From NCBI GenBank assembly GCA_031550185.1, contig JAVBOU010000008.1:1-57382 (forward strand): a stretch of DNA of 57,382 bases. Direction: 5' to 3'. Shown here in pieces: positions 2,890-48,268 of this stretch (the stretch's first letter is position 1; each line of letters starts with the position of its first letter). The stretch is from Kiritimatiellia bacterium (GTDB lineage Bacteria; Verrucomicrobiota; Kiritimatiellia; RFP12; JAVBOU01). Under the pieces are notes generated by a model. The model was given only the letters and a program-made list of their open reading frames with translations, did no database searches and was not told the DNA's origin. A program made the position numbers and the translations under genes.

Positions 2890-5523
2890 TTAGCGGATCA
2901 GAAAGAGTGAGCCGCTGTTTTTGCTGAGCCAGATTTCGGTGTTGTTCTTTACCTTGGCAATATGCCATTTTGCGTGAAGTTCGGGCGGAAGGAGGTAATC
3001 ACCGGTGATGTTGGAGGCGGTCAGCAGATGGCAACGCGTTATCTCCTCTGGGATGTCATCGAGCAAGGTCACGTTTACGGTGCCCACGGCGTTGAACGCG
3101 TTGTCCACAATCAACGGAGCAATGAGTGACGCGGCAAAGCCGGCCTCGTTATCCAACATGACGCTGTTTTTCACGTTGCCGCTGCCGCCAATGAAAGCCT
3201 GCGGGGCGACAGTGACCGCGCTGATGACGACGCCATTGGTCGTCAAAAGAAGGGTGCCTTCTTCGATGGTTGTGTCGCCGGTATAAGTGTTGACACCACC
3301 GAGCATCCAAATGCCGGTTCCTGTTTTCAGCAGCGATGTCGGATAAACGGTGGATTTGTCGATGCGGTTGGGAATGACGCCGAGCACCGCGTTGCCGAGC
3401 GTGTTGGTGCCGGCGAGGGTGAGGGTTTTGGCTCCGTTGACAGTGACGGTGAAATTGGATTCAAAAACAACCGCACCGGATCCAGACGCGTCGAGCGTTG
3501 CGCCGCCCGTGGTTCCGGCCAGGTTGATCACGCGGTCGGTAGATTCGCCGGAGCCGAGATAACGGAGCGTGCCGGTGGTGGTGCTACTACCGATCTCAAT
3601 TGTCCCGTTTGCGACAGTGACAGGGCGTCCAAGGCTGCTTGAACTTCGGGGATTGACGACACGATTCAAAACGTACGCCTCTAAAATGCCGTTGTAAATA
3701 TAGGTTTTCAAGGTGTACGTGCTTTCGTCGCCACGCAGTGTAAAAACGCCGGCTCCTGTTTTGGCAATGCCGCCGTTGTCCGCAATGATGCCGTCAAAGA
3801 TCGAGTTCGAATCCCGATGGCCGATGGTAAACACGCTGCTTCGAAGCAGGAACAGCGTGCCGCCGCCGAACATGGTGTTTACATGATACGCTCCGCTGTG
3901 CGTCTCAATACGCCCGTAGTTGTAGATGTCACCTTCCCGATCTCCATACGGCAACACGTTGCAATTGGCTCCCAAGTCAATGCGTCCGAACAAGTAAATG
4001 TCCCCGGTCACCGTATGGTCGGAGCCTGAGATACCGACGCTTGAGCCTGACGATCCGGTGACTGGAAGCTCTGTGGTCATCTGGTAAAAGACAATACCGC
4101 AATCGCCGCTTATACCCCTGGTGATAGTGCTTCCCTTGCCTCGCCACGACGCAATGACACCTTGCACGCCGGTGAAATCCAACGGCGCGTTGATGGACAT
4201 TGAGGCATTGCTACGTAGCATGACGAGGCCGCTTTTGACATGAAGTTTATTCGTGCTGGTGATGTTGGACACCGAGGCAAGATAGGCTGACATGATGGAG
4301 TTGACAACACCCTCTTCTGTGAATGTCACCGCTGTGCCCGACGGCATGTAGACATTTTCGACGTTTCCCAGCACAGGGCCATTGTAACCATTGGCATAAG
4401 TCCGAAATTCGGTGACGAGATCCAGTGGCCTGACGCCTTTTTCGGTGTCATAGGTGAGGACGAGCGAATTGCCGTCTGTATACATCCAGGGAATGATTTG
4501 TACGGACGGCGTTCCGGGTAGTCCGTTCGCGTCGCCAAACAGCTCCGGTGGATTGTCAATGAAGACATTGCCGACATTGGATGCAGGAGCGTTTCCAAGC
4601 ACCGCGTCATTTCCGCCAACTGCAATTCGCGTGGGCGAAAAATTTTGCCGGGTAATTTCACCAATGGAAAACACGGTTTCACGGTTTGCCTTCGGATAGA
4701 GCAGGAACGAGTTGATGCCGCCCTTTTTGTTTGTGTCGATGACCAGGCTCTCAATCCGGTTTGTGGAGTTTGCCGTCCCGTTGCCGCTCGCTCGCAGAAA
4801 AGCAGTGCGAAGGGCGATGGTGTCCGCGCGGACGGCGCCATTGCCGCGATCGGAGTTGAATTCAACGGAGGTGCGGTTGTCGATGGTTATTTCGGCGTTG
4901 GGTTGCGACATGTCGTTGCCATCAAAATAAAGTGTGCCGCCACCGGTGATCAGCAACGAGTCCATGTTTTGCATGGCGTTGCGGATTCGTATGGTACCGG
5001 TTTCAATGCTGAACGTACGCGGTACGCCACCCAAATCAAGATTCAACGATTGGTTTTCAGTACCCTGATTTCCAATCCAAAACGACCTGTTGACTTTGTT
5101 GGTGATGTTGCCATTCAGCGTTAGCGTCCGGCGCGCGCCACTGCCGCGCAGATAGATGTCACCCGACGCTGTCCCATGCTCAATGGTGATGCCATTCAGG
5201 AAACTCGTGTCCCTTGAGGTGTCAATATACTGCGCACCGCGGACAATCAAGCTTTGGCCCCACAAGCCGTTGATGACTCCGTCCGCCCAGTTGGAGAGAT
5301 CGTTCATGTCGTATGTGCCGGCGGCATCCCGTATCCAGCCGGAGGCAGGAGTGGTGCGCAAGGATGCGGTTGATGTCCAGACCGTCTGTTCGGCGGTTTG
5401 GACGACCGCGCGGACAACATAATCTTTTGAAGGGTCAAGACTGTGCAATGTATATGAAAACACCTTGGGTGACGCCTCGATATTTGACGCGGAAAGAACC
5501 GCGGAATATTCCCATGCGGCCAC
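2890..5523 (-). CDS. PATR beta-helix surface protein, C-terminal part of a gene split by an in-frame TAG at 5530-5532
   Basis: Open frame with PATR-type repeats (LLKTGTGIWMLGGVNTYTGDTTIEEGTLLL) and the conserved C-terminal module ending NNTEIWLSKNSGSLFLIR. It has no signal peptide or plausible native start of its own (tool start is a GTG 6 nt after the TAG). It is in the same frame as 5530..6618. Confidence 0.7.
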   Translation of the reverse strand: MAAWEYSAVLSASNIEASPKVFSYTLHSLDPSKDYVVRAVVQTAEQTVWTSTASLRTTPASGWIRDAAGTYDMNDLSNWADGVINGLWGQSLIVRGAQYIDTSRDTSFLNGITIEHGTASGDIYLRGSGARRTLTLNGNITNKVNRSFWIGNQGTENQSLNLDLGGVPRTFSIETGTIRIRNAMQNMDSLLITGGGTLYFDGNDMSQPNAEITIDNRTSVEFNSDRGNGAVRADTIALRTAFLRASGNGTANSTNRIESLVIDTNKKGGINSFLLYPKANRETVFSIGEITRQNFSPTRIAVGGNDAVLGNAPASNVGNVFIDNPPELFGDANGLPGTPSVQIIPWMYTDGNSLVLTYDTEKGVRPLDLVTEFRTYANGYNGPVLGNVENVYMPSGTAVTFTEEGVVNSIMSAYLASVSNITSTNKLHVKSGLVMLRSNASMSINAPLDFTGVQGVIASWRGKGSTITRGISGDCGIVFYQMTTELPVTGSSGSSVGISGSDHTVTGDIYLFGRIDLGANCNVLPYGDREGDIYNYGRIETHSGAYHVNTMFGGGTLFLLRSSVFTIGHRDSNSIFDGIIADNGGIAKTGAGVFTLRGDESTYTLKTYIYNGILEAYVLNRVVNPRSSSSLGRPVTVANGTIEIGSSTTTGTLRYLGSGESTDRVINLAGTTGGATLDASGSGAVVFESNFTVTVNGAKTLTLAGTNTLGNAVLGVIPNRIDKSTVYPTSLLKTGTGIWMLGGVNTYTGDTTIEEGTLLLTTNGVVISAVTVAPQAFIGGSGNVKNSVMLDNEAGFAASLIAPLIVDNAFNAVGTVNVTLLDDIPEEITRCHLLTASNITGDYLLPPELHAKWHIAKVKNNTEIWLSKNSGSLFLIR

Positions 5524-5529
5524 ATCTTC

Positions 5530-6618
5530 CTAGCCATCCAATGTTCCCCAGCACACCGTCACCGTACCGGCGTCATGACGCAGCATTGGCGCACGTCCGG
5601 TGACAGTCACATTGGCAGGGGAAAAAAGCGTGTTGGCAATGGGATCCAACTCGATAGCCGGAACCGTGGTAAAAGACATTGTGGAAGACCAAGCTTCCTC
5701 TTCGCCCGCCGTCGCCATAACCCAGACAAAATATTCACGGCCGTATTCAATGTTGTCGAACAAACATGAGACATTTGCCGGTTCTCCGGCTGTGCTGATG
5801 ATAGGCTGTGTGGTGAAATATTCCCAGTTTGCGCTGTCTTCGCCCTGATTCGTTGTACCCCAGAAAATCGTTGCCATTCCATCGGCGGGCAAAAGCGCCA
5901 CCTGCGCATTGACAACCGCAACGGAGGGATCCACACGTGTTCCAAGCGGGTAAAGCAAAACCGAAAACTCTTCCACTTCCTCGTTTGTAAACGCGTAGAC
6001 ATGGAGCGGATTGGTGCTGTTTTGGGCGGTGTGCTTCAGCGAGAGTGTGCCATCCGCGCCTGCAATGTAGCGGTATGCGAGGACGCGGTCACTCTTGGCT
6101 CCGTCGCAATTAAAGGTAAATGATTCACTTGTGATTTCATCGCCTCCGTTCGGGCTGGCGACAAAATCCACAAACCTGTTGCCGTTCACGGTCCACACCC
6201 GGTTGTAAAAGCGCGCTTCATAGCAGACGCCGGGCGTGAGTCCTGTAAATTTCATGGTGCCGCTGGATGTCCCGGCGTTGCACGCTTTCAATAACTGATA
6301 CACATCCTCCGCGGCCGGTGTGGCGATGCTGGCGTAAGTGGTTGAGCCATTGTTCATGGTTCCTGGAAGTCCGGAAAAATTGCTTCCGGAAGTTCCGGTT
6401 GTACTCGTGAACTGGACACCGTTAAGAATTGCATTTTGCGTTAAGGTTGAAAAATTGCCCGTCGCAAAATCCAGTGCATGTGTGTAGGTTTTTGTTGACG
6501 TCACACCAGTCTGTGCGTCGCCTTTAAACGCAAAAACCTTGGTGTTGGGTGATGGATTGTCGGCATGTTCCGCCATGACGAAAAACGCTGAAAGGGCGAA
6601 TAGAAGGAGTTTGTTCAT
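5530..6618 (-). CDS. N-terminal part (signal peptide, CBM-like N-domain, Fn3-like units) of the TAG-interrupted giant protein
   Basis: ATG at 6618 preceded by GGAGATCATT. Signal peptide MNKLLLFALSAFFVMAEHA. The N-domain is homologous to the N-termini of 12137..17062 and 39981..43892 (TKTYTHALDF ... HVYAFTNEE). It ends at a TAG inside a conserved Fn3-like unit. Confidence 0.7.
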   Translation of the reverse strand: MNKLLLFALSAFFVMAEHADNPSPNTKVFAFKGDAQTGVTSTKTYTHALDFATGNFSTLTQNAILNGVQFTSTTGTSGSNFSGLPGTMNNGSTTYASIATPAAEDVYQLLKACNAGTSSGTMKFTGLTPGVCYEARFYNRVWTVNGNRFVDFVASPNGGDEITSESFTFNCDGAKSDRVLAYRYIAGADGTLSLKHTAQNSTNPLHVYAFTNEEVEEFSVLLYPLGTRVDPSVAVVNAQVALLPADGMATIFWGTTNQGEDSANWEYFTTQPIISTAGEPANVSCLFDNIEYGREYFVWVMATAGEEEAWSSTMSFTTVPAIELDPIANTLFSPANVTVTGRAPMLRHDAGTVTVCWGTLDG

Positions 6619-6642
6619 AATGATCTCCGTGATCTGTTTGTT

Positions 6643-8196
6643 TTAGCGAACGCGTTCGCTGTCGAATTTTGCGCCGCGCAAGGCGGAGCGGACAAAGGAA
6701 CCCCAATAGGGCGTGGGCGTGAAATTCCAGTCTGAAATGACGCAGGGCGAGGCGTCGATGTGGAAGCTCCAGGCGCTCCAGTTGAGCTTGTATTTTTGGA
6801 TGAAGGCCAGCATGTCGGGCGCCCACTGGTAAGGGTCGACAATGACTTTTTCAAACTCCATCGCCTTGGGCTGGCAGCCGACTTCGCCGACAAAAATGGG
6901 ATGTTTTTCGGCGACGGCCAACACCTTGCCGGCCCAATCCGTCTTCCACGGGTAAATGTGCGTGGCGTACATGATGCCGTTGCCGCCTTTCTCCGTGAGC
7001 GAGAAGCCATTGGCCACGCCGCTCAAGTCATACGCCCAGTCGAGTCCGCCCGCGATGACGATGTTTTTCGCGCCGGTTGCACGGATGACCTCGAGCAATT
7101 TTTGCATGCCGATCGACGCGCCAAGCTCCTTGCCCTCGGTGGTTTCGGCAATGGCGCCGTCGCGTTTTTCACCCGCGAGCTTTCCGCCATCGCGCCACTC
7201 CTCCCACGAGATGTCGTACGGCTCGTTGATCATGTCGAACAGCACCGCGGGATGATTCGCGTAGCGCTTCGCCGCATCGCTCCAAAACGCCGCGTGCTCC
7301 TGCGTTGGCGCGCGGTATTCGTGCAAATCCAGGACGATGTAGCAACCGTGCTTCGCGGCGTACTCAATCATTTCGTCGACCAGTTTGCGGTACGCCTGCG
7401 CGCCGTCCGGCCCCTGCTTTGGATCGCGGCCAAACCAGAAGCGCGTTTTCACCGCGAAACGAATCACGTTCACATTCCAGTCCTGCAACGCCGCGGCGAA
7501 CGACTCGCGCAAGTGATCGCCCTCGTGCCACCACTCCAGGCTCGGAATGTTCACGCCCTGCAGCCACTCCTCGCGTCCGGCCTGGTCAACAATCCGGTTG
7601 CCCTTCACGACGAGCGTCGCCTCCGGTCCCAGCGGCTTCACGTCCGCGCGCACCGGATCGACGCCGGCGAGTGACACGTCGTCAATGTCAAACGTGCCGC
7701 TTGCCGTGTTGAAATGCGTGGGCATGAACTCCAGGCTCACTGCGTCCGCCGGAACCCCGAACTTGTGCGCGATCCAGCGCCAGTCCGACGTCCCCGTAAA
7801 ACCCACGGGTGGCGCACCGGTTTTTTTGCCGTCCTGGTCGATGAAGTTCATGATGATCCGCGCGTCGTTCCACTTCTCTTTGCCGTGCTGGACATTTTCA
7901 TAACGCGTGCGAAACTTCAATTCCAGATTCTCAAAACCCTTTGGCACGTCGACTTTCACGTAAAAGAAATTCACCATCTCGTCCGCGCCCCGCGACGTCA
8001 ACCGTAGAAAGTGATTGCCATTTTCCGCGGCATACTCCGCGTCGCCAGCCGGCCAATGCTTCGGCCAGTTGTTTTCAGATTCCTCAAAGTCTCCATTTTG
8101 AAAAATCGAAACCGGAATCGGAGTTGTCAGCGGAACCGCCGCGTGCAGAACAGTTGCGGTAAACGCGCAGGCAAAAAAAGTGTGTGCGTGCATCAT
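6643..8196 (-). CDS. secreted CBM4_9-like + GH5 glycoside hydrolase (cellulase superfamily)
   Basis: Start is the ATG at 8196, overlapping the upstream stop as ATGA. Signal peptide [19 protein letters not shown]. CBM-type opening [11 protein letters not shown]. GH5 motifs LDLHEY, MINEPY (acid/base Glu) and FVGEVGCQP (nucleophile Glu). Confidence 0.85.
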   Translation of the reverse strand: [517 protein letters not shown]

Positions 8197-9314
8197 GAGG
8201 TTTTCTTTCGTAATTCGTCGACAGGCGCGAGCGCGAGATCGACGCGGTTGTGGACGGTTGTGGTGTAACAGATGTAACGATCGTCGCAGCAAAATTGAGG
8301 ATGCGGATGGAGATGTCCGCATTGCGTCAGGCGACGATCAAGCGGCGGGTGGTTGACGATCTCAACCTCTTTGCCAGTGCGCAGGTTGCGAAAAATCACG
8401 CGGCAATCCGGGGCGTGCGGATGCCCCATCGCGTCGGCCACGAGCAGGCTGCCGTCGCACGACGAATGGGCGTGCGCAAGGTGGCCGGGCCAGAGATTTT
8501 CGTCGCGACCTGTGGCCACGTCGACACGCTTGACACCCACGCCGTAGTGAACATACCACACATGTTTCCCGTCCGCGTCCCACCACTCATGGCCGCTGTG
8601 CGAAACCGGCGCGGGGAGAATGGGGCGCGCTGTTTCGCCGCGGCGGATGATCCACAGCCGGTGATACGGACGCGCTTCGGGTTCAAAAGGTTCGTCGATA
8701 TGCTCCTGCCAAAATTCGTGCGCAAACATCATCACGCCGGGTTCGGTCGGACTGGTCAGCGCGTGGTCATAATAACGGTTAAACGTTTGCCAAACGCGCG
8801 CGGGACCGCCGTCGATCGGCATGTCACCGAGGAACATCTCTTCGCCGAAGATGGCGTCGAAGTTGATCGACTTGCGGTTCGCGGTGAAATTCGGATGCGT
8901 GGCCATGCGGAGCGGCGCGCGGCGTTTGGCCTGCTCCGCCAGGAAGGAATTGACTTTTCGCGGTTCCGCGCCGGGTTGTGGTCCGCACGCCCAAAGGTCG
9001 AGATTGTTAAACCAATAAATGTCGCCATTTTCCTCGTCCACGAACGGCGTGTGCGAAGGCTGTATGTCCAGCCGCACGCGAAACTCATCGCGTGCCAAAT
9101 CGACGACGCCCATGATGTAGACGGAGTTTGTCCCGCCCTTGGGAGGAAACATGCAAATGACCCAAAGCCATTGCCCGTCGCGCGTCATCGAGCGGTTGGT
9201 GTAATAGAAATGTTTCTGAACCGGCGCAAGGCGTTCGGTGAGAATGAAACTTTGCGCGCCGCTGACGGGATTTGTCCAAGGCGTGAAAAGGCGTGATGTG
9301 GCGGGTGTGTGCAT
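8193..9314 (-). CDS. oligogalacturonate lyase-like protein (PL22 family), no signal peptide
   Basis: 373 aa. Blocks KHFYYTNRSMTRDGQW, SGHEWWDADGKHVWYVHY, HAHSSCDGSLLVADA and HPHPQFCCDDRYICYTT parallel the conserved blocks of enterobacterial Ogl as I recall them (RNYFYQKCFTQDGKK, THEFWVPDGSALVYVSY, SHLMSNYDGTLMVGDG, HPHPSFTPDDKQVLFTSD). Confidence 0.7.
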   Translation of the reverse strand: MHTPATSRLFTPWTNPVSGAQSFILTERLAPVQKHFYYTNRSMTRDGQWLWVICMFPPKGGTNSVYIMGVVDLARDEFRVRLDIQPSHTPFVDEENGDIYWFNNLDLWACGPQPGAEPRKVNSFLAEQAKRRAPLRMATHPNFTANRKSINFDAIFGEEMFLGDMPIDGGPARVWQTFNRYYDHALTSPTEPGVMMFAHEFWQEHIDEPFEPEARPYHRLWIIRRGETARPILPAPVSHSGHEWWDADGKHVWYVHYGVGVKRVDVATGRDENLWPGHLAHAHSSCDGSLLVADAMGHPHAPDCRVIFRNLRTGKEVEIVNHPPLDRRLTQCGHLHPHPQFCCDDRYICYTTTVHNRVDLALAPVDELRKKTS

Positions 9315-9330
9315 GGTGATGATGAGACGA

Positions 9331-11982: not shown

Positions 11983-12093
11983 GTGCATTCTCCTTGTGTG
12001 ATTGTGCAATGGCGCGAAGCGGTTATTTTGTGTTATGCGCTCCGCCGATGATAGTCAGCATTATACGTCGCATGTTGAGGATGTGCAATTTGA

Positions 12094-12130
12094 ATCCGTG
12101 GCGTGGCAGGAGTTCTGCCACGCCACGGAT
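12094..12130. repeat. GC-rich palindromic element, copy 2
   Basis: ATCCGTGGCGTGGCAG-GAGTT-CTGCCACGCCACGGAT, a 16-bp perfect stem, 6 nt after the stop of 12137..17062. Confidence 0.9.
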
Positions 12131-12136
12131 TGTTTA

Positions 12137-17100: not shown

Positions 17101-17128
17101 GCGTGGCAGAGGTCGGTCTCTGCCACGC
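17101..17128. repeat. GC-rich palindromic element, copy 3
   Basis: GCGTGGCAGAG-GTCGGT-CTCTGCCACGC. It lies 13 nt after the stop at 17142 and 38 nt before the start at 17062. Identical 28/28 to copy 4. Confidence 0.9.
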
Positions 17129-22861: not shown

Positions 22862-22889
22862 GCGTGGCAGAGCCCGGCCTCTGCCACGC
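22862..22889. repeat. GC-rich palindromic element, copy 5
   Basis: GCGTGGCAGAG-CCCGGC-CTCTGCCACGC, 7 nt after the stop at 22897. Confidence 0.9.
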
Positions 22890-35400: not shown

Positions 35401-35428
35401 GCGTGGCAGAGGTGGGGCTCTGCCACAC
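35401..35428. repeat. GC-rich palindromic element, copy 8
   Basis: GCGTGGCAGAG-GTGGGG-CTCTGCCACAC (one arm mismatch), 31 nt upstream of the start at 35369. Confidence 0.85.
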
Positions 35429-35531
35429 AGCGGATTTTTGTCATATTTTCACTCACGTGGTGAAAGATTACTGTTTTTGTCTCATGTGCGGCGCATCGTC
35501 CTTTGAGAACCATACGCCGCACGTCATTGTT

Positions 35532-38198: not shown

Positions 38199-38268
38199 CT
38201 GATTTTTCCTTAGTTGCGTATCCTTTGGATCGGACACAATGTTTGTGTTGTTGTTGATTTTACATGTT

Positions 38269-38296
38269 GCGTGGCAGAGGTGGGGCTCTGCCACGC
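38269..38296. repeat. GC-rich palindromic element, copy 9
   Basis: GCGTGGCAGAG-GTGGGG-CTCTGCCACGC, 9 nt after the GH5 stop at 38306. It has the same loop as copy 8. Confidence 0.9.
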
Positions 38297-38305
38297 GGAA
38301 GTTTT

Positions 38306-39958
38306 TCAACGCATTGTCTTCATCTCAAACTTTTCGCCCTTGAGGGTGCGCATGACCGGTTCGCCCCAGTAGGGCGTGGGGGTGTAGTTCCAGTCGGAAA
38401 TCAGGCACGGCGAGGATTTGGGGTGGAAGCACCAGGCGGTCCAGTTGAGGCGGTATTTCTGGATGCAGCCGAGCATGTCGGGCGCCCAGGTGTCGGGCAT
38501 TTCGTGATTTTCGGGCGGGATGAAGGACATGCGTTCGGGTTGGCAGCCGACTTCGCCGACGAGGATGGGATATTTGGCCGCGGCGTCGAGGAAGGATTTT
38601 TGCCAGTTGCTTTTCCAGACGTACACGTGGGTTTCGTACATAATGCCCTGGCCGTCCTTGGTGTCGGTGAGTGCGTAGCCGTTCAGGATGCCGCTCAAAT
38701 CGTACGCCCAGTCGAGTCCGCCCGCGGAAAGGAGATTTTTGGCGCCGGTCTTGCGGACCGTGTCGACGAGGTATTGCATGCCGACGGATTCGACGGCGCC
38801 GAGGTTCTCCTGGTTTTCCGCAATGACGCCGGCCTTGCCGCGCGCTTCGTCGAGGTTGCCGCCGTTGCGCCACTCCTCCCAGGAGATGCCGTGGGGTTCG
38901 TTGAGCAAACCGAAGATGACGCCGGGATGGTTGTTGTAACGCGTGGCGACGTCCTTCCAAAAGTGGGCGTGCTGGCCGTTCGCGGCGCGGTACTCGTGCA
39001 GGTCGATGACGAGGTAAACGCCGTTTTGCTGGCAGGTCGCGGCGACTTTGTCGACGAGCTCGCGGTAAGCTTTGCCCTTGTCGTTTTGCCACGGGCCGGT
39101 GCCAAACCAGAAGGGCGATTTCACGGCGAGGCGGATGACGTTCACGCCCCACACCTTGATGCACTGGTCGACGGATTCGAGAATGTGTTCGCCCGCGGCG
39201 GTCCATTCCATGGAGGCCAGGGCAACGCCCTGCAACCAGACTTCCTTGCCATCCTTCGTTGAAACGAGGCGGTTGCCCTGGACTTTCAGCGGGACGGTTT
39301 TTGTGTCCTGCGGAACGGGCAACGTGGTACTCCAAACGTAGCCCGCGTATTCCGCGGCGGCCTTGGCCTGCGCGGCGGCGAGCGTCTCGGCCTTCCACTC
39401 CGCGGCGTTGTAACCGGTGATGACCCAGTCGTCGAGATCCAGCGTGCCGCTCTTTGCCTGGAAGAGGCTCGGCATCAGCGCGAGGAAGACGGCACCATCC
39501 GGAACCGCGAACATCAATTCGCGCGTTTGCCAGCCGTCGGAGGTGCCGCGGAAATTCGGCGCGCCCGGCCCGCCCTTGACCGTCGTGTGGTTGGCGTCCT
39601 TGAACTCCATCATGATGCGCGCGTCAAACCAGTTTTGCGCGCCGACCGCGACATCCTGCCAGCGCGCGCGGAAGGTCATCTTGACGCCTGCCACGCCCTG
39701 CACATTCACAGGATGGTAGATCATCACATGCTTGCCCGGCTCGAACTGCGTGATGCGCAAAAAGCGGTTGCCGTCCTCGACCGGATAGCTGATGCCGTCC
39801 TTGGGTTCCTGCCATGCCTCGGCGCCGTTGCTGGCGGTGGTTTTTTGGAAGTCGCCGTTGGCGAGCAGGTTTTTTTCCGCGGCGTGGCAGAGGCTGTGCC
39901 ATGCCACGCAGGCGGCGAGCGCGAGGGCGAAGCGAAGTGGTTTTCCGGGTTTGTGCAT
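38306..39958 (-). CDS. secreted CBM4_9-like + GH5 glycoside hydrolase
   Basis: Start set to the ATG at 39958 ([26 protein letters not shown] signal peptide). CBM opening [10 protein letters not shown]. GH5 motifs IDLHEY, LLNEPHG and LVGEVGCQP. Confidence 0.85.
   Translation of the reverse strand: [550 protein letters not shown]
39882..39909. repeat. GC-rich palindromic element, copy 10 (inside GH5 signal-peptide codons)
   Basis: GCGTGGCA-GAGGCTGTGCCA-TGCCACGC. It encodes VAWHSLCHA. Confidence 0.85.
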
Positions 39959-39980
39959 GGGTGGTGTGTTCCTTTCGGGG

Positions 39981-42900
39981 TTACTTGAGGATGAAGAGAG
40001 TGGGCTGGGGTTTGTACTTGATGTAAAGGTCGTTGCCGTCAACCCAGCAGGACCATTGGTTGAGCTGCCGAGTCGGCAAATCCAGGGGAAGCTCGCCGTC
40101 GGCGATGGTGATGCCGCCACTGGCGGTCAGCACTTTGTAGGTTCCGTACGCGTCCTTGACGGTTGTGCGGGGGCGCAGGAAGGAGCGGGTTGCGAAATTC
40201 GCGCGGCCGCTGAACGTGGCGGGCGTCAATCCATTGGCCTGGATTTCAATCGCGAAACCGTTGTCGGAATTGACTTGAAGATTCACCGCGCTGACTTCGC
40301 CACCGGCGAGCTGGAGGACGTTGCCGAAAGGATCGTTGTTCATCCCCATGCTGATGTTGCCCGAGAGCGTGACGGTTGCGCCGGTGTTCACGCGCATGGT
40401 GTTGCCGCTGCCAAGATAGCCGACATTGCAGTGGGCGGCGTTGACCCGCGCACCATCAAGAAACTCAATGATATTGCCCGTGTTAACGGCATGATACCCC
40501 GTGCGAAGCGTGCCGCCGGGCATGTTGAGGCTGCTGTCGCCCACCCAAAGTGTGTTGGAGGAGGAACCCCAGTCGTTGCCGACAACCACATAATTGGCGG
40601 TAACGTTCGCGGCGCCGCAAATGCGGCCTTCGTTGAGCGAACCCTGCCCGCCGATGACCAAGTGGTTGATGCTCGCGGTGGCGTTGCTGATGACCAGCCG
40701 GTTGGCGTTGCCGCGGCCGCCGAGCTTGATTTCAGCGGTCGCCATGTCAACAACGGCGTTGTTGAAAATGTCGAGATGGTTGTCCGAACCCTGGTCGCCG
40801 ACGGTGATATAGCCGTTGGGCAATCCTGTCAGGCGTCCACCATTGACCACGAGTTTTGTGCCGCCGGTGTTGTTGCCCATGTTGATGGCTGCGGCAACCA
40901 GATGGCCGTTTGGCTGCACCAGAATTTTGCCGCGCGCGCCGTTGTGGCCGGTCGAGGAATATGCGTTGACGGTCAGCTTCGCGTTGTCAATTTCGAGGAT
41001 GGCGTCGGTGTTGATCGCGAAGCCGCCAACGATGACGGACTCGCCCTCCATGAAGCGAATCGCGCCGCTGTTGACGGTCAGGTTGCCAATGCTCATGGGT
41101 GCATTGTTGCCGGTAAACGTCATGACGCCAGGGTTGTTTTTGACCAGCGAACCCGTACCCCAGATTTTACCGTTATACGTGAACGAAACACCTTGCGCCA
41201 GTTCAAGGGTTCCCTGTTGCACCGTCATCTGCGCGGGGAGCGACGGCGAAGTCATGCGCAATGTGCCCGCGCCGAATTTTCGGAACACACCAGAACCGTC
41301 GACCGGTGTGTGGATCACCGCGGTGTCCTGTCCGGCATACACATACAGGTCGTTCGCGGCCATGTTAATCCGTCCTGACGCGACGGCGTTGGTAATGCTC
41401 GAGGACGCACGCATGAGCAGCCCGCCCGCGCCATTTGCGCCGAGATTGAGCGCGCTGCCGCCGAGGTTCAACGCGGATTGCAAAAGCAGGGCCGTCGCGT
41501 TGACCGGTGCAAAGAGAGTTTCATTGGAGGCGAGCCGCGCGTATGGCGCGTTGAGTCCGGCGGGCAGGTTCGTTACGGTGACACCGCGAATGTCGTCATG
41601 CGCCGCATATTCGCCGCCGTTCTTTTCAATCACAAACCACGGTGGCAACAGGCCGGAGGAATGGCCGTCGAAAACCAGACGTTCGTTGGCGCCGGGATTC
41701 GTCGCCGCGTTGTGTTTGACGGCGAGTGTCATCGCGCCGCCTTCTCCGTGGAGCAGACTGCCAAATCGCGCGGTAAGCGTGGCCGCGTCATCCGCGCCCG
41801 CGTCCAAAATCAAGCGGCCGGTGTTGAACCCGCCCGTGGCGGAGAGCGCGGTCGCGCCACGAAGCGCAAGTTCGTCACCGGCGGATTTGGACAATGTCAA
41901 CTGAGCGATTTTGGGAACCGGTCGCGCGGCGCCAAGCGCGACATCACCCGCGCCAAGTGTCGCGTCCGCCCCGGCCGCAATGCTGGCTGCAAGCTCGCCG
42001 TAGGTCAGGCTCAAGCCGCCAGTGAACGTGTGCTTCGCGGCGCCGAATTCGCCATGCGCGCCGCCCAGCGAGACCGAGCCGCGCCCCGCGAGCACCGGGC
42101 CAAGGATGCGCATTGGCGTGTAGCCGCCGTTTGGCCCGTTCAGGCGCATCGCATCGTAAAGCGTCAGCGTCCTATCCGTGCCGTGCAGTTCCCACCCCGT
42201 CCAGTCCGTGGTGAGTGTGACCGTTACCGCGCCGACATCGATGTCCTGCGTCAGTTCTGGTGAGGAGGTGCCATTGAAAATGACGCTGTCGCCCGATGCA
42301 AAGGTGGCCGCCGCGCCGTTCTCGCGCCAGTTCGCCGTGACTGTATCCCACACCGGATTGTTTGCCGGGTTGATCCACATCAGCACGCGGCTTGAAAATG
42401 TGGCGCTGTTCGTCGCGCTCCACACCTCGCGCGTTTCAAACGTGTCGGGCATCGTGTTCACCGCGCTGAACGCGTAATAAAATTCCGGCAAGTCATCGAT
42501 ATCAAGGCTGAACGTGCGCGGCATGAAAGCCGCCGGCCATGTGTGGCGCGAGGTCAATGCGTCTGGCGACGTCCCAACCCAGCATGTGACTGTTGTTTCA
42601 GCCGCGCCGATGTCCACAAGCGGAATGTTGAGTACCACCAGCGCCGGCATGTCGATGCTGGACGGCACGCCCAGCACCGCCTCGCCGCCTGTGCGGAATT
42701 TTAAGACATCGGACCATGCTTCATATGTATCGGTCGTCGCGCGGAAGGCACAATAATAATCCGTCGCGTACAGCAACGTTGCCATCGTCCCCGCCAGCGC
42801 GCCCGCCTCTTTTACGCCAAGCTCCAACTGCCCTGTCCATGCGTTGGACGTCGTCCCCCAAAACAGCGTCACATCCACAAATCCCGTCGCGCCGGCGTAC

Positions 42901-43892
42901 AACACATCACCCGACACATCGGCGCGGTCAAAGCTAATTTCCCCGATTTTCGGAACCGCCAGCACGGGCGTCTGTCCGCGCGTTTCAAACGTCGATGCCT
43001 TTGTCGCCATCACGCCGTTATTCGTCACAAAACGAAAGGCGTAAATTGTCTGCGGTTCCAGCGTGTCAATGGGCAGCGAAAACGATCCGCTCGTCGTGAA
43101 CGTCCCGACCGTGGCAGAAGGCGCGCCCTGCCACGACGCCTCGGAATCATCGCCGTCATCGACCTTCCATTGCGCCACGATTGTCGTCGACTTGCCCGGC
43201 GTGATGAGGCGGCCGTTGAGCGTCGCATAGGTGTCGCCCGCCAGCGTCGCCGGCTGCGCCGTCATCTCCCACACCTTTTCGTTGCTGAAACCGTAGACAT
43301 GGTACGTGCCGCCGCCAAGCTGGGTAAGTTGAATGGCGAGCTCTCCGGACTCCTGCGCGGTGTAGCGGTACACCAAAATTTGGTCGGTCACCGGAGTGGC
43401 GTCAGGGTTGAATTCGATGGCATCCGCGGTCGTGCCATTCGGGCGAAATGTGATGCGCTGGTTGCGATTGTAACCGGCTTCCCACGCACGGTTGTAAAAG
43501 CGGATTTCGTGCAGGACGCCTGCCTCGAGTCCGGTGATGTACATCGTGCCGGAGGAAATGCCGTAATTGAGCGAGTTCAGCAACGTGCGGATTTGATTTC
43601 CCGTCGGCGTGACAATGTTGTTGTTATTGTTCGCCGTTGAACCCGGAAAGCTCCGCCAGCCATATTGCTGGTCGACAGAGGAGGCCGTGGCCGTCGTGTT
43701 GGTGAAGGTGACGCCGTTGATCACCAGTGTGCCGGAGGCAACGCCAAAGTTGTGCGCGTGCGTGTACAACTTGTTGGTGGAGATGCCCGTCGTCGCGTCG
43801 CTGTTAAAGGCAATGAGGCGTGGGTTTTCCTGTGCGTTGAGCAGTGCGGTGACGCAGAGAAGCAGGCACGTTGTGAACGGATGTTTTTTCAT
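39981..43892 (-). CDS. giant (1303 aa) secreted protein: CBM-like N-domain + Fn3-like units + PATR beta-helix + LFILK tail
   Basis: Start set to the ATG at 43892 (MKKHPFTTCLLLCVTALLNA signal peptide). The N-domain is homologous to 12137.. and 5530.. (TNKLYTHAHNFG ... YHVYGFSNEK). Ends DLYIKYKPQPTLFILK. Confidence 0.87.
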   Translation of the reverse strand: MKKHPFTTCLLLCVTALLNAQENPRLIAFNSDATTGISTNKLYTHAHNFGVASGTLVINGVTFTNTTATASSVDQQYGWRSFPGSTANNNNNIVTPTGNQIRTLLNSLNYGISSGTMYITGLEAGVLHEIRFYNRAWEAGYNRNQRITFRPNGTTADAIEFNPDATPVTDQILVYRYTAQESGELAIQLTQLGGGTYHVYGFSNEKVWEMTAQPATLAGDTYATLNGRLITPGKSTTIVAQWKVDDGDDSEASWQGAPSATVGTFTTSGSFSLPIDTLEPQTIYAFRFVTNNGVMATKASTFETRGQTPVLAVPKIGEISFDRADVSGDVLYAGATGFVDVTLFWGTTSNAWTGQLELGVKEAGALAGTMATLLYATDYYCAFRATTDTYEAWSDVLKFRTGGEAVLGVPSSIDMPALVVLNIPLVDIGAAETTVTCWVGTSPDALTSRHTWPAAFMPRTFSLDIDDLPEFYYAFSAVNTMPDTFETREVWSATNSATFSSRVLMWINPANNPVWDTVTANWRENGAAATFASGDSVIFNGTSSPELTQDIDVGAVTVTLTTDWTGWELHGTDRTLTLYDAMRLNGPNGGYTPMRILGPVLAGRGSVSLGGAHGEFGAAKHTFTGGLSLTYGELAASIAAGADATLGAGDVALGAARPVPKIAQLTLSKSAGDELALRGATALSATGGFNTGRLILDAGADDAATLTARFGSLLHGEGGAMTLAVKHNAATNPGANERLVFDGHSSGLLPPWFVIEKNGGEYAAHDDIRGVTVTNLPAGLNAPYARLASNETLFAPVNATALLLQSALNLGGSALNLGANGAGGLLMRASSSITNAVASGRINMAANDLYVYAGQDTAVIHTPVDGSGVFRKFGAGTLRMTSPSLPAQMTVQQGTLELAQGVSFTYNGKIWGTGSLVKNNPGVMTFTGNNAPMSIGNLTVNSGAIRFMEGESVIVGGFAINTDAILEIDNAKLTVNAYSSTGHNGARGKILVQPNGHLVAAAINMGNNTGGTKLVVNGGRLTGLPNGYITVGDQGSDNHLDIFNNAVVDMATAEIKLGGRGNANRLVISNATASINHLVIGGQGSLNEGRICGAANVTANYVVVGNDWGSSSNTLWVGDSSLNMPGGTLRTGYHAVNTGNIIEFLDGARVNAAHCNVGYLGSGNTMRVNTGATVTLSGNISMGMNNDPFGNVLQLAGGEVSAVNLQVNSDNGFAIEIQANGLTPATFSGRANFATRSFLRPRTTVKDAYGTYKVLTASGGITIADGELPLDLPTRQLNQWSCWVDGNDLYIKYKPQPTLFILK

Positions 43893-43925
43893 CGTGTGGC
43901 TCGTGGTCAGGAGGTGTTGCGTGGC

Positions 43926-43949
43926 GTGGCAAAGGTACCCCTCTGCCAC
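43926..43949. repeat. GC-rich palindromic element, copy 11 (degenerate)
   Basis: GTGGCAAAGG-TACC-CCTCTGCCAC, one mismatch. It lies 10 nt after the stop at 43960 and 33 nt before the start at 43892. Confidence 0.7.
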
Positions 43950-43959
43950 AAAAATGTAG

Positions 43960-44973
43960 TCAGCGGTTTTTTTTCATTTCAAATTGCGCGCCTTTCAACG
44001 CGCGCAGAACGGGTTCGCCCCAGTAGGGTGTGGGCGTGAAATTCCAGTCGGCAAGCAGGCAGGGCGAGTGGCGCGGGTGGAAGCACCAGGCGGTCCAGTT
44101 GAGGCGGTATTTTTGAATGCAACCGATCATGTCCGGCGCCCAGGTCTCGGGCGCTTCGTGGCGTTCGGGCGGAAGGAACGGCATGGGATCGGGCTGGCAA
44201 CCGACTTCGCCGACCAGCAACGGGTATTTCGCGGCGGCGTTGATAAAACACTCCTGCCAACCGCTTTTCCACGGATAGACGTGCGTTTCGTACATGATGC
44301 CGAGACCTTCGGGCACATCGACCAGCGCATGGCCGTTCAAGATGCCGCTCAAATCATACGCCCAGTCCAATCCGCCCGCACTGATCAAATTCATCGCGCC
44401 GGTCTTGCGGATCGCCTCCACCAGCGGTTGAAATCCGACGGAGCGAAACGCGACAACCGGCTCGGTGTTCTCGGCAAAAACACCGTCCTTTTGCTTTGGG
44501 TCGTCCGTAACATCGCCGCCGTTTCGCCATACCTCCCATGAAATCGTATGCGCCTCATTCAAGAGGCCGAAGATCACGCCTGGATGATTCTTGTAGCGCA
44601 CCGCCGCGTCCTGCCAAAACCGCACATGCTGCTCCGAAACCGCGCGGTACTCATGCAAGTCCAGCACCACATAAACCCCGCGCGCCTGGCACGTTGTGAT
44701 CACGTCATCCACGCGCTTCCGGTACGCCGCCGCGTCCTCCGCCAGCCAGAACTTCGAATGCACCGCCAGCCGGATGATCCGCACGCCCCACACATGAATC
44801 GCCTGGTGAACGGTTTCGGGAATGTAATTTCCTTCCGGCCAACACTCCAGCGACGAAATCGACACGCCTTGCAGCCACACCTCGCGTCCGCTTTCCTTCT
44901 CCACCAGACGGTTCCCGCGCACCGTCAAAAACGGCGTCCACGCATGGGCGTTTTTCGGAATTTCAAGCGTCAT
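43960..44973 (-). CDS. GH5 glycoside hydrolase paralogue lacking signal peptide and CBM
   Basis: Start set to the ATG at 44973, overlapping the regulator stop as ATGA. It starts [27 protein letters not shown], directly at the point where the catalytic domain begins in the paralogues. Motifs LDLHEY, LLNEAH and LVGEVGCQP. Confidence 0.8.
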   Translation of the reverse strand: [337 protein letters not shown]

Positions 44974-46076
44974 ATTGTCTTCCTTGCCTTTGCCAGCGAA
45001 CCACGTTCGATCAACTCCACCGGCAACGCGTGATGCCCCTGCGCCGCACCCTCCGCGCCAGTCAACTGCGCCTCCAGCAACCGCACCGCCGTGGCGCCGA
45101 TCTCCGCAAACGGCTGCCGCACCGTCGTCAACCCCGGCGTCAGCCACTCCGCCATCGGGTCGTCGTCAAACCCCACCACACCCACATCCTCCGGAATCAG
45201 CAACCCCCGTTCCCCGCAAAACCGGTAGCACATCCGCGCCACCGCGTCACAACTGCAAAACACCGCCGTCGGCCTTCCCCGGCCCGTCAGCAACCCCTCG
45301 CAAGCCTCCCGCACCGCTTCCCCCCAATCCGCAAACGGATCCTCCACCACAATGTCCCGCACCAAACTTCGCGGCAACGCCACCCCAAACTCCGCCAGCC
45401 CGTCCCGAAATCCCGCCAGCCGGTCCGCCACCGTCGACGACGCCGTATCCCCGATAAACCCCACCCGCTCGTGGCCCAGCTCGCCCATCCGCGTCCCCGT
45501 CAAAAACCCGCCCCGGTAATTGTCCGCCGCCACCGACGTCATCCCCGCCTCCTCCCCGCAATGCGCGTCCACCATCACAAACGCAAACCCCTCCGCCCTC
45601 AACCGCGCCACCGCCGCCCGGAATCCCGCCGTGTGCAACGCCACAATCACCGCCCCGCGCGCGCCGTTCTCCGTCAGCCTCCCCACGCTCTCCATGTCCT
45701 CCGTCACATCCCCGTGCGCGTCGCACACCTGCACCTCATACCCCCGTTCCCGCGCCACCTGTTGCGCGCCCCGCACGATCCGTATCGACGGTTCCCACGC
45801 CAGATTTCCCACCATGATCTTCAACATCCCCGCCGTCCTCGACTTCTCCCGCACATACAAACCCTTCCCCGGCCTGCGCTCCAGCAACCCCTCCGCCACC
45901 AGCAACTCCGTCGCCTTCCGCACCGTCACCCGCGCCAGACCATGCTGCCGCGACAGCTCATGCTCCGACGCCACCCGCTCCCCCGGCGCATAATGTCCCT
46001 TCGCGATTGACGCCTTCAACTTCAACGCCAGTGTTCGATAAACCGGAGAACCGGTGTGCATACCAGTACTATTCAT
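44970..46076 (-). CDS. AraR-like transcriptional regulator (GntR-type wHTH N-terminus + LacI/GalR-type sugar-binding domain)
   Basis: The N-terminus PVYRTLALKLKASIAKGHYAPGERVASEHELSRQHGLARVTVRKATELLVAEGLLERRPGKGLYV is a GntR-type HTH. The remainder (KIMVGNLAWEPSIRIVRGAQQVARERGYEVQVCDAHGD ... VGFDD) is a periplasmic-binding-protein-like LacI effector domain. The start is ambiguous among ATGs at 46136, 46076 and 46061. Confidence 0.8.
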   Translation of the reverse strand: MNSTGMHTGSPVYRTLALKLKASIAKGHYAPGERVASEHELSRQHGLARVTVRKATELLVAEGLLERRPGKGLYVREKSRTAGMLKIMVGNLAWEPSIRIVRGAQQVARERGYEVQVCDAHGDVTEDMESVGRLTENGARGAVIVALHTAGFRAAVARLRAEGFAFVMVDAHCGEEAGMTSVAADNYRGGFLTGTRMGELGHERVGFIGDTASSTVADRLAGFRDGLAEFGVALPRSLVRDIVVEDPFADWGEAVREACEGLLTGRGRPTAVFCSCDAVARMCYRFCGERGLLIPEDVGVVGFDDDPMAEWLTPGLTTVRQPFAEIGATAVRLLEAQLTGAEGAAQGHHALPVELIERGSLAKARKTI

Positions 46077-46186
46077 GCTTCCAAAATACCACGACAATCC
46101 GTTTCCTGTCAACCTATGAATACCGCACACCGGCATTAGAGAAGTTGTGTTATAAGTTTGGTAAATCGTCGCGTATAGAACGCTCC

Positions 46187-46470: not shown

Positions 46471-46531
46471 TATCATGCCGCGCGCCGCGCTTGCTCGGAA
46501 CCGGCGATGTTGCGGATGGAGACGCGAGGCG

Positions 46532-48268
46532 TCATTGCGCGCCGCTGTTTTGGCGCGTCCATGAACCATAAAGGTGCGGGTGGTCGGTGTCAACGTAGAC
46601 GCGGTGGTAGGTGCCCTCGGTGTAATCCCACAGGGGGCGGAAACTTCCGGTGTCGAGGTCCTGAGGGAAGTCGGTGACGATCTTGTATTGCAACGGATGG
46701 GTGTCGTCGCGGCGCAGTCGGCGTTGGAATTCCTCCTCGTCGCGAATGAAGAGCGGATGGGCGTATTGCGCGGGTTGCGCGAGGGTGAGCGGACCAGCGA
46801 CGACGGCGCAACGGCGCGAATGAAACGCGTCGACCGCCTCAAGCCGCGGTGTCGCGGGAAGGAGCAGTTCGACGCGGTCGCCACGGGACCACACGCGGTT
46901 GATCTCGAGCCACTGGCCGGGCGTTCCGACGACATGCTGCCCGTTCACCGTGGCGCGGCTGCCATGGCACCACGCGGGAATGCGGAAGCGCAACGCGCGT
47001 TGCCGCGGTTGCGGAACATCAATGGTGAACGCGATGGTGTCGATCGCCGGATAGTCTGTTTTTTGCGTGAGCGTGAAGCCATCCTCAATGACGCTCGACG
47101 GAAGATAAAGCGACACATGCAACGCCTCGGGTGAGGTAAAATAAATGAGGTCGTGATACGCGGCAACGGCCTGGATGTACGTGCCGCTGCAACAGGGCCA
47201 CGTCGAATGATAATAGTGGCGCGTGGAACTGGAGGGACGGTAATCCGCGTAATACGTCGTGCGTCCGTCGGGCCAGACCGGAAGCGCGGCGCCGATGCAA
47301 CTATGCAGCACGCGCTCGGCCCAGTCCATGAAGCGGCACTCGCCGGTGAGCTCGAGCAGATAACGCGACAACTTGAAGGCCGCCCACGACCCGCAACCCA
47401 CCTCCGCGTGCTCGGCGCAGATGTCGAGCGAATAACCAAGCCGCCCGTCATGAATCGGCAGCAACCGTTCGAACGGTCCGAAGCCGCCGGTGCAGAAACA
47501 CTGCGTGCCGGTCATGTAATCATGCGCGTTAACGGCCGCTTGCAAGAGCGCGGGATCGTTGTCCACCACAGCGGCCGTGACGAGGCTGCAAAAGCTGTTG
47601 ACGTGGCTGTACGCGTGCACGGTGTGGGCGTTGGACGGGCGGTTGCTGTCGCGGAACGGATCCCAAAAATATGGATAACGCCAGACGTCGCCGAACTCCT
47701 TGAAGCGAACGTCGCCGGTCTGCTCAAAGGCGCGGTAGAGGTTTTCGCCGAGCGTGTACCATTCCAGCGTGCCGTGAGGATGGCGGCCGTCCCAGTCGAT
47801 CTCACCCGCCGGCGAGCGCGTACGGTCGAACGCGTTGCCGGCAAACTCCGTCAGTCCGCCGAGAAAGCGACGGCCATCTGGATAGCGTGTGAAATGATGG
47901 AGGTCGACGATGCCGCCGACCAGTTTGTCAAAGCCATACGTGCCAAAATTATGCTGACCGTCCTTGCCGTAAATGCCGAGCAGTCCCTCGAAAAGGCGCA
48001 CCGCCTTGTCCGTCAGCGCCGCATCACCCAGCGCCGCGCCGAGTCGCGAAAAACCGCTCAGCCACTGGCCGATTACCAGCCCGCTGTCGTGCGAACACCA
48101 GCCGCCGAGCACTTTGCCGGGCGCAGGCAGATTTTTGCCTTTGCGAAACCCGTGCAGGATGTCGTCGTTGTCCACGGCAAGATACGTCTCGCGCGCGTCA
48201 AGCACTTGATCCAAGTGGCGCGACGCGAGGAGCGTGGCAGGAAGCGATTGGAGTTTGCGTTTGATCAT
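46532..48268 (-). CDS. DUF1680/GH127-like glycoside hydrolase (beta-L-arabinofuranosidase-like)
   Basis: 578 aa from the ATG at 48268, preceded by AAAGGAATGAC. HAEVGCGSWAAF (Glu-x-x-Cys) and STWPCCSGTY (Cys-Cys) resemble the Zn/Cys catalytic blocks of GH127 HypBA1. The family call is from memory and was not aligned. Confidence 0.55.
   Translation of the reverse strand: MIKRKLQSLPATLLASRHLDQVLDARETYLAVDNDDILHGFRKGKNLPAPGKVLGGWCSHDSGLVIGQWLSGFSRLGAALGDAALTDKAVRLFEGLLGIYGKDGQHNFGTYGFDKLVGGIVDLHHFTRYPDGRRFLGGLTEFAGNAFDRTRSPAGEIDWDGRHPHGTLEWYTLGENLYRAFEQTGDVRFKEFGDVWRYPYFWDPFRDSNRPSNAHTVHAYSHVNSFCSLVTAAVVDNDPALLQAAVNAHDYMTGTQCFCTGGFGPFERLLPIHDGRLGYSLDICAEHAEVGCGSWAAFKLSRYLLELTGECRFMDWAERVLHSCIGAALPVWPDGRTTYYADYRPSSSTRHYYHSTWPCCSGTYIQAVAAYHDLIYFTSPEALHVSLYLPSSVIEDGFTLTQKTDYPAIDTIAFTIDVPQPRQRALRFRIPAWCHGSRATVNGQHVVGTPGQWLEINRVWSRGDRVELLLPATPRLEAVDAFHSRRCAVVAGPLTLAQPAQYAHPLFIRDEEEFQRRLRRDDTHPLQYKIVTDFPQDLDTGSFRPLWDYTEGTYHRVYVDTDHPHLYGSWTRQNSGAQ

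Follow-up and report, generated by a model that had tools for sequence, protein, structure and literature searches.

Giant tail-bearing proteins accompany GH5 enzymes in a Kiritimatiellia CAZyme cluster without a linked transporter

Kiritimatiellota, most of them uncultured, are common glycan degraders in guts, digesters and sediments. Little is understood of the way in which they capture polymers without Sus-type systems. A contig from a Kiritimatiellia bacterium (JAVBOU010000008.1; 57,382 bp), analyzed here in its entirety and referred to below as the window, bears on this question: between positions 2890 and 48268 it encodes carbohydrate-active enzymes (CAZymes), five of them of family GH5, together with giant secreted proteins that end in a common short tail. 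What do the giants do, and how would the released sugars reach the cytoplasm? We drew the gene map from a six-frame list of open reading frames (ORFs), Pfam and NCBIfam scans, and inspection of start codons; the contig ends at both edges of the window, and statements of absence cover these 57 kb. With moderate confidence, we read the locus as an expanded Kiritimatiellia CAZyme cluster in which the giants act as surface glycan-binding or adhesion scaffolds alongside secreted GH5s, while import is encoded elsewhere.

Every supported gene from 48268 down to 2890 lies on the minus strand according to the ORF list, Pfam matches and start refinement, as an earlier note on this DNA had stated. The inventory, coordinates and counts of that note were essentially right, but its PATR, CBM and PL22 labels and the extent of the run needed correction: the same-strand run comprises 23 genes and continues past the locus into PFK (1541-2767) and purB (102-1457). 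Coding sequence occupies 96.8% of 2890-48268. Spacing is tight, as noted before (mostly 7-110 nt); gaps run from overlaps up to 162 nt, with a single exception of about 455 nt that separates GH127 (stop at 46532) from the regulator (Reg; start at 46061 or 46076). Inspection of starts revealed overlaps in the pairs Reg/GH5e, GH28/GH5c and PL22-like/GH5a. With the giants numbered G1 to G10, the minus-strand order is GH127, Reg, GH5e, G9, GH5d, G8, G7, GH28, GH5c, G6, GH5b, G5, GH42, G4, G3, G2, PL22-like, GH5a and S362+G1, followed by PFK and purB. The plus-strand arm carries GH29, G10, an RHGA/GH55-like beta-helix protein and GH43 (Table 1).

The regulator, correctly called AraR-like before, consists of an N-terminal GntR winged helix-turn-helix (HTH) and a LacI-type sugar domain (Peripla_BP_3), which is the AraR architecture. 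Its stop codon overlaps the start of GH5e, and its own start is overlapped by an operator-like sequence, TACTGGTATGCACACCGGT, that follows a sigma-70-like promoter; this arrangement points to an autoregulated unit beginning at the regulator. The promoter, followed by the motif TACnnGTATnCAnACCnGT, occupies an equal position upstream of the regulators in two related loci, L099 (~8790-8860) and L101 (~8780-8845). In Bacillus subtilis, AraR controls glycosidase genes and, through an operator that overlaps its promoter, its own gene as well. The window regulator resembles it in joining a GntR-HTH to a LacI/GalR-type sugar-binding domain and in having an operator-like motif at its own promoter, but the sequence of that motif (46050-46068) differs from the AraR box.

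Regulators 49-58% identical to that of the window were found in L081, L099 and L101, where the genes that follow are of the same kinds. L099/L100 carries the regulator, a GH5, a 909-aa PATR giant and G3-like genes; L101 carries the regulator, a GH5 and a G3-like tail-bearing protein; and L081 carries the regulator, two GH5s, of which the first is 57% identical to GH5a, and three tail-bearing proteins (PATR, PATR and G1-like). The regulator followed by two GH5s is also present in L098 (Kiritimatiellaeota bacterium B1221). The C-terminal part of G3 is homologous to the gene after GH5 in both L101 and L099. Gene order in these relatives indicates that the locus is an expansion of a conserved cassette composed of an AraR-type regulator, a GH5 and a tail-bearing giant. 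In L083, giants resembling G9 (50%), G3 (45%) and G2 (45%) lie beside GH127; the paralogues therefore predate the split of these organisms, and the comparison indicates that the giant array is maintained rather than recently amplified. The link between PATR giants and carbohydrate use, which the earlier note had assumed, is upheld by this synteny across genomes, both in the conserved order regulator-GH5-giant (L081, L099/L100 and L101) and in the giants beside GH127 (L083). Neither the cassette nor its tandem expansion turned up in a search of the literature. What is new here is this conserved unit with its promoter and operator, expanded in the window; it is also concrete and testable, offering a defined operator-like motif, a GH5 family with more than 1,000 homologues in the Planctomycetes-Verrucomicrobia-Chlamydiae (PVC) group, and candidate beta-helix binding proteins.

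All five GH5s match PF00150 with 85-103 bits and keep the acid/base and nucleophile motifs, NEP (NEA in GH5e) and GE(V/F)G, the latter as GEVG in GH5d and GH5e. They are 41-69% identical in all-against-all BLASTP, GH5e being closer to GH5b-d (57-64%) than to GH5a (51%). The best PDB relatives of GH5b, 8bn7, 4hty and 5a8m, are distant glucanase-type GH5s. The description of four secreted enzymes joining a carbohydrate-binding module (CBM) to GH5 stands as to signal peptides and an N-terminal domain, but that domain (185-193 aa) matches no Pfam family, CBM families included, even at E<=5. It is conserved in more than 100 PVC homologues, and a search with the pair formed by this domain and GH5 (GH5b query) retrieved 1,243 homologues from PVC phyla with E<=1e-10; the family includes forms of about 745 aa in Verrucomicrobia and Planctomycetes. 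Homologues of the GH5 and PATR proteins stem from Kiritimatiellota, Lentisphaerae and Verrucomicrobiota. The C-terminus is strikingly conserved in GH5a-e (e.g. 25173-25196) and homologues P0028-P0147: Arg is the last residue in 117 of the best 120 homologues, and the C-termini that were inspected have the sequence ...FE(M/L)KK(M/L)R or one close to it.

Counting 5530-6618 and 2890-5523 as one gene, nine tail-bearing giants lie on the minus strand, and G10 on the plus strand is the tenth. The nine had been described as PATR/beta-helix proteins; the number is right, but only six have PATR/TIGR02601 matches, and the 1641-, 1303- and 734-aa proteins have none. G2, G6, G7 and G8 (885-904 aa) are full-length paralogues with 29-42% identity in BLASTP (42% over the full length for G6 and G7), and G1 has its C-terminal 150 aa in common with this set. 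A second group is defined by an N-terminal domain of about 230 aa that is common to G3, G9 and S362 and duplicated in G3, and G5 resembles the C-terminal half of G9 (28% identity to G9 residues 702-1322). Lectin-type modules occur in some giants: in G4, DUF2341 and LamG, a concanavalin-like lectin module, both score above the Pfam cut-offs, and G10 has weak Calx-beta and GLEYA matches below them; weak PA14 matches occur in the giant homologues P0026/27. We did not assign the N-terminal domains, whether of the GH5s or of G3, G9 and S362, to a CBM family, given no Pfam match at E<=5 and only generic structural matches for the S362 domain.

A search of PDB sequences with the giants gave no match. 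The AlphaFold2 model of G7, built with ten homologues, is an all-beta helix (pLDDT 82, pTM 0.81) whose last four residues are disordered. The best Foldseek neighbours are the autotransporter passengers Hap, Hbp, SepA, EspP, pertactin and Ag43, plus 7JVI, the structure of CBM89; for the PATR proteins, structure prediction thus finds a helix similar to passengers and to a xylan-binding module, with weak scores. Pfam, NCBIfam and transmembrane (TM) scans of the giants gave no sign of a beta-barrel, a TonB box, a plug or a membrane segment. The giants are predicted to be soluble, autotransporter-passenger-like beta-helices. They share with type Va autotransporters (Hap, Hbp, EspP, pertactin and Ag43) the beta-helix stalk, the PATR repeat and a Sec signal peptide, but the window contains neither the 12-stranded C-terminal barrel (PF03797) nor a TpsB/BamA-like partner. 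Instead, the giants end in a hydrophobic tail of 6-8 residues; the proteins stop 6-8 residues past the last modelled strand.

All ten giants share this kind of tail: each ends in (G/S/T)-x-four hydrophobic residues-(R/K) (e.g. at 2890-2916, 9331-9357, 32655-32681 and 53534-53560). Three tail-bearing proteins also stand in tandem in L104. We surveyed the tail by an exhaustive profile search, which with a limit of E<=1e-30 retrieved 2,175 proteins. The best 150 of them include 63 of 700-1100 aa, of which about 38 carry the short tail and 23 carry PEP-CTERM in the same place, on homologous beta-helix bodies. The position of the short tail is therefore that of a sorting signal. Unlike PEP-CTERM/exosortase proteins, the window giants have no PEP motif, TM helix or Arg cluster in their tails, SLFLIR being one more of these, and no TIGR02595 match, and the contig contains no exosortase gene. 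This alternation of tail and PEP-CTERM within one family hints at a novel surface signal, and the short tail may serve in sorting or anchoring.

If the giants are surface scaffolds, the locus would operate as follows. The GntR/LacI-hybrid regulator would bind the predicted operator just downstream of its own promoter, and sensing of a released sugar would derepress the minus-strand unit from Reg to G1 (~43 kb). Four GH5s with signal peptides and the ten giants would be exported by Sec. The giants, which have no translocator barrel, would remain at or near the surface and hold substrate beside the endo-acting GH5s; we infer both this location and the glycan binding. Oligosaccharides would then be taken up by transporters whose genes lie in other parts of the genome, and GH5e, GH28, GH42, GH127, the PL22-like protein, GH29 and GH43 would complete degradation in the cytoplasm. 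Hairpins found after many cistrons would probably tune mRNA stability or read-through of the long transcript.

Several observations weigh against this reading. One giant contains a nonsense codon, and therefore not all copies are needed. The window has a single operator copy, with no further copies found, so GH127 and the plus-strand arm may be regulated separately. A single 43-kb transcript is what we infer from gene spacing only, and a promoter-like site upstream of G2, together with the hairpins, could divide the unit. A long-type GH5 homologue in Roseimicrobium stands alone amid unrelated genes, and therefore the GH5 family is not always partnered with giants. The best PDB relatives of the GH5s score only about 68 bits, and no CBM family in Pfam is matched by the N-terminal domains of the GH5s or of G3, G9 and S362. 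The S362 domain was modelled with low confidence (pLDDT 64) and gave generic beta-sandwich, FN3 and GH2 N-terminal matches, and for G7 Foldseek returned weak matches (E >= 3e-3, TM <= 0.36). Weak Foldseek scores are usual for long curved helices.

The alternative that fares best among those we weighed, though we think it unlikely, is that the cassette serves the cell's own surface, in adhesion, aggregation or the trimming and remodelling of self-made exopolysaccharide or biofilm matrix, with the exo-enzymes as mere neighbours. PATR (TIGR02601) and PEP-CTERM (TIGR02595) proteins are classically surface- or biofilm-associated, and the PEP-CTERM signal in 23 of the 63 family members fits such a role. 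So do the L101 and L099 cassettes, which lie among non-CAZyme genes, and the GH5 family, which is near-universal in PVC and can stand alone amid unrelated genes. However, the first gene of the cassette encodes an AraR-type regulator that senses sugar, as is typical of catabolic operons; giants are found amid GH127, GH95, GH32, GH28 and GH42 in the window, L083 and L084; and the window encodes no glycosyltransferase, Wzx/Wzy or exosortase.

The fold of the giants admits another explanation, namely that they are undescribed beta-helix polysaccharide lyases or hydrolases and that the locus is an enzyme arsenal. GH28, GH55 and PL1/3/6/9 enzymes adopt the right-handed beta-helix fold, the giants interleave one-to-one with known CAZymes, and the Foldseek list of G7 includes a GH55 structure at low rank. 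We nevertheless regard this as quite improbable: no giant matches the Beta_helix, pectate lyase or GH28 models of Pfam and NCBIfam, whereas GH28 and the 841-aa protein of the same window do match lyase/hydrolase beta-helix models; the structures closest to the G7 model, passenger stalks and CBM89, are non-catalytic; and conservation in the giants is dominated by Gly and Asn turn positions. CBM89 (PDB 7JVI) belongs to a GH10 from the capybara gut; this right-handed beta-helix has no catalytic role but binds xylan and is the partner of an endo-glycanase (PMC8810776). G7 matches it with a Foldseek probability of 0.94 and weak scores otherwise (E 0.046, TM 0.36). CBM89 is fused to its enzyme, whereas the giants are separate and much longer proteins. 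A literature search for reports linking PATR proteins to glycoside hydrolases or to Kiritimatiellota found nothing relevant.

We then considered uptake. Pfam scans matched no transporter family in any window product, and TonB_dep_Rec, Plug, SusD and RagB had no match among the 26 products. None of these has more than one TM-like segment, which is always N-terminal where present, and at the coding density of the locus no unannotated barrel-sized ORF fits. Pfam and the TM scan thereby agree with the earlier statement that the 57 kb hold no ABC, MFS, TRAP or TonB-dependent transporter and no SusC/D pair. The contig ends at both window edges, and adjacent transporters are therefore possible. In L099, the cassette has a TonB-dependent receptor 3.5 kb away, and in L101 it has MFS genes within 10 kb, neither being a conserved part of it. 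Beside the L099 cassette (1-4500), we also observed, along with that receptor, a LuxR/PAS regulator and a pseudopilin/ATPase cluster resembling a type II secretion system; these secretion-like and receptor neighbours may be a lead to export or import around the cassette.

The idea that the giants take the place of uptake components, as capture machinery replacing SusC/D and guiding glycans to or through the outer membrane, is very improbable: seven leaderless enzymes that need imported substrate without a transporter in 57 kb, giants adjoining endo-enzymes as SusC/D/E/F do, and a phylum without Sus-type systems (PMC5148204) speak for it, but the giants are soluble all-beta proteins without barrel, TonB box, plug or membrane segment, the G7 model is a soluble rod, relatives have TonB-dependent transporter or MFS genes a few kb away, and genes missing from one contig may still be present in the genome. 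As modelled, the giants could bind glycan and cannot themselves be an uptake component, so of the binding or uptake role that the earlier note suggested from their place in the locus, the uptake half does not hold.

The locus resembles a Sus-like polysaccharide utilization locus (PUL) of Bacteroidota in that exo-glycosidases and secreted endo-glycanases for a single class of glycan are encoded together with non-catalytic surface proteins and a regulator that senses sugar. It differs in having no SusC/SusD, which define such a PUL, no visible lipoprotein signals and no hybrid two-component or extracytoplasmic-function (ECF)/anti-sigma regulator, and its non-catalytic partners are beta-helix proteins of 730-1640 aa rather than SusD/E/F-like lipoproteins. 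With at least 12 CAZyme genes and a GntR/periplasmic-binding-protein regulator, it counts as a CAZyme gene cluster in the dbCAN style, the transporter signature being absent. A CAZyme locus without SusC/D is thus what the earlier note described, but the novelty it attached to a non-Sus architecture does not stand. The genome paper on Kiritimatiella glycovorans already reports that TonB-dependent uptake systems like those of Bacteroidetes were not detected there (PMC5148204), and such an architecture was therefore already known for the phylum. Pontiella agarivorans is described as having only a small number of porins and MFS sugar transporters, encoded away from its enzymes (PMC10880615). The window is like these Kiritimatiellota/Verrucomicrobiota clusters (K. 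glycovorans and Pontiella spp.), which have many secreted glycoside hydrolases and no Bacteroidetes-type uptake loci; a PVC CAZyme cluster without linked Sus-type transport is in itself nothing new.

A bolder form of the scaffold reading, which we hold to be rather doubtful, is a lineage-specific surface apparatus for capture of polysaccharides. Its beta-helix fibres would be giant, separately encoded carbohydrate-binding scaffolds, stoichiometric with PVC-wide GH5s under an AraR-type switch, and the (G/S/T)-x-four hydrophobic residues-(R/K) tail would be a new C-terminal sorting signal replacing PEP-CTERM. If true, it would stand beside Sus systems and cellulosomes as a third way of capturing glycans outside the cell; unlike a cellulosome, the window encodes no product with a cohesin or dockerin match in Pfam.

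Table 1. Features of the 57,382-bp window with positions, strand and supporting evidence.
Feature	Position	Strand	Description	Evidence
GH127	46532..48268	-	GH127-like beta-L-arabinofuranosidase, leaderless	PF07944 1.3e-22, PF20736 6.3e-20
Promoter/operator	46050..46112	-	sigma-70-like promoter TTGACA-18-TATTTT (46112-46083), operator-like sequence (46068-46050)	promoter scan
Reg	44970..46076	-	AraR-type regulator, start 46076 or 46061	PF00392 3e-14, PF13377 1.4e-34
GH5e	43960..44973	-	catalytic domain only, no signal peptide	PF00150 9.4e-24
G9	39981..43892	-	1303 aa, secreted, tail TLFILK, no PATR match	BLASTP, tail inspection
GH5d	38306..39958	-	signal peptide, ~200-aa N-terminal domain, GH5	PF00150 6.4e-29
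G8	35532..38198	-	PATR beta-helix giant, tail TLLLVR	PATR match
G7	32655..35369	-	PATR beta-helix giant, 904 aa, tail SLLLIR	PATR 1.6e-11
GH28	31244..32593	-	leaderless	PF00295 1.1e-49
GH5c	29586..31247	-	signal peptide, N-terminal domain, GH5	PF00150 6.2e-28
G6	26893..29547	-	PATR beta-helix giant, tail TLFLIR	PATR match
GH5b	25173..26825	-	signal peptide, N-terminal domain, GH5	PF00150 2e-29
G5	22897..25101	-	734 aa, secreted, tail SLFFLR	no Pfam match
GH42	20579..22789	-	leaderless	PF02449 2.8e-37
G4	17142..20561	-	1139 aa, DUF2341, LamG and PATR, tail SLFMVR	PF13385 3.9e-8, PF10102 6.3e-6, TIGR02601
G3	12137..17062	-	1641 aa, two S362-type N-terminal domains, FN3-like repeats, tail GLFMIR	
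G2	9331..11988	-	PATR beta-helix giant, tail TLLLLK	PATR/TIGR02601
PL22-like	8193..9314	-	leaderless, weak match	PF14583 26.9 bits vs cut-off 30
GH5a	6643..8196	-	signal peptide, N-terminal domain, GH5	PF00150 7.1e-27
S362+G1	2890..6618	-	one tail-bearing giant of ~1240 aa, PATR in C-terminal part	in-frame TAG 5530-5532
GH29	48853..50535	+	alpha-L-fucosidase, leaderless, divergent arm	PF01120 6.1e-30
G10	50687..53560	+	957 aa, secreted, tail TRFILK	Calx-beta and GLEYA matches below Pfam cut-offs
841-aa protein	53583..56108	+	secreted beta-helix enzyme candidate, RHGA/GH55-like	PF12708 5.7e-29
GH43	56197..57180	+	leaderless, start 56197	PF04616 9.4e-44
Hairpin (representative)	17102-17127		GC-rich palindromic hairpin	13 copies in window
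Hairpins (all copies)	2849-2869, 12097-12122, 17102-17127, 20596-20621, 22863-22888, 26738-26758, 31164-31189, 35402-35427, 38270-38295, 39883-39903, 43925-43950, 48727-48752, 57225-57245			

Leaderless status of the remaining enzymes (GH28, GH42, GH127, GH29 and GH43) and of GH5e was judged by eye. Of the leaderless minus-strand enzymes listed before, all but PL22 are confirmed; the PL22-like protein falls below the Pfam threshold and matches about half of the model (profile positions 180-382 only), and its C-terminal half resembles the oligogalacturonate lyase PDB 3pe7 (E 2.7e-7). GH127 is the first minus-strand gene, has a Shine-Dalgarno sequence at its start (48268), and is probably its own transcription unit. 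On the divergent arm, Pfam supports GH29 and GH43 as already assigned; GH29 has in addition a weak F5_F8_type_C match (27.5 bits vs cut-off 28.2), and the 841-aa protein aligns with the GH55 beta-1,3-glucanase 5m5z in PDB (E 1.2e-13). Together, GH28, the PL22-like protein, GH42, GH127, GH43 and GH29 form a set that suggests pectic or arabinogalactan-type side chains as the substrate. These exo-enzymes make pectin or arabinogalactan a plausible target, but the five core GH5s have no assignable substrate.

S362 and G1 are one gene interrupted by a real stop codon, through a nonsense mutation or a split of the gene. The TAG splits the giant into ORFs of 362 and 877 aa in the same frame, the alignment to homologues continues across the stop (WGTLDG*EDVAAWEY vs WGETDGGTDAAAWQS), and the identical stop is present in an independent Logan assembly of run SRR23967709.

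Thirteen GC-rich hairpins are distributed over the window, with the core GCGTGGCAGAG, a 3-6-nt loop and CTCTGCCACGC. The exact form GTGGCAGAG-N2-10-CTCTGCCAC occurs 5 times vs 0 in shuffles, and the six copies that were folded gave energies of -22 to -35 kcal/mol. Eight of the 13 lie 8-14 nt beyond the stop codon of a minus-strand gene, and the minus strand has no U-tract there; the divergent intergenic region contains one copy, and another follows GH43. Three others are located in the signal-peptide coding regions of GH5b (26738-26758), GH5c (31164-31189) and GH5d (39883-39903), where they encode VAWQGLCHA|A, the end of the hydrophobic core and the cleavage region; here a repeat element has apparently been recruited into coding sequence, or it acts as a 5' translational brake.

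The hairpins look like repetitive extragenic palindromic (REP)-type or intercistronic stabilizer elements such as those of E. coli malE-malF, with which they share GC-rich perfect palindromes after stops, many copies and the lack of a U-tract. They differ from REP elements in the three copies inside signal-peptide coding sequence, and the contig has no RAYT transposase. Canonical terminators were rejected, since there is no U-tract on the coding strand and several copies are terminator-like only for the antisense strand; terminator-like counts in the window equal the shuffled expectation. A sigma-54 promoter or an operator of the regulator was likewise rejected, on inspection, for wrong GG-GC spacing and varying loop length. 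As for a genome- or lineage-wide element, the hairpin was not found in 80 purB loci or in the homologous cassettes, and a metagenome scan returned 13 contigs with one match each, none of them multi-copy.

No tRNA or Rfam family was found in the window. The exact purB product had no match on record; in a scan of genome contigs, purB was at most 76% identical to its counterparts in metagenome-assembled genomes of Kiritimatiellia, and synteny of the best relative (L001) with the window is limited to PFK-purB. Shorter Logan contigs of run SRR23967709 (L082 and L103) carry identical genes and fall inside the window. GC skew reaches +0.27 over 1-2000 (purB) and -0.29 over 44001-46000 (regulator/GH5e) and is mildly positive elsewhere.

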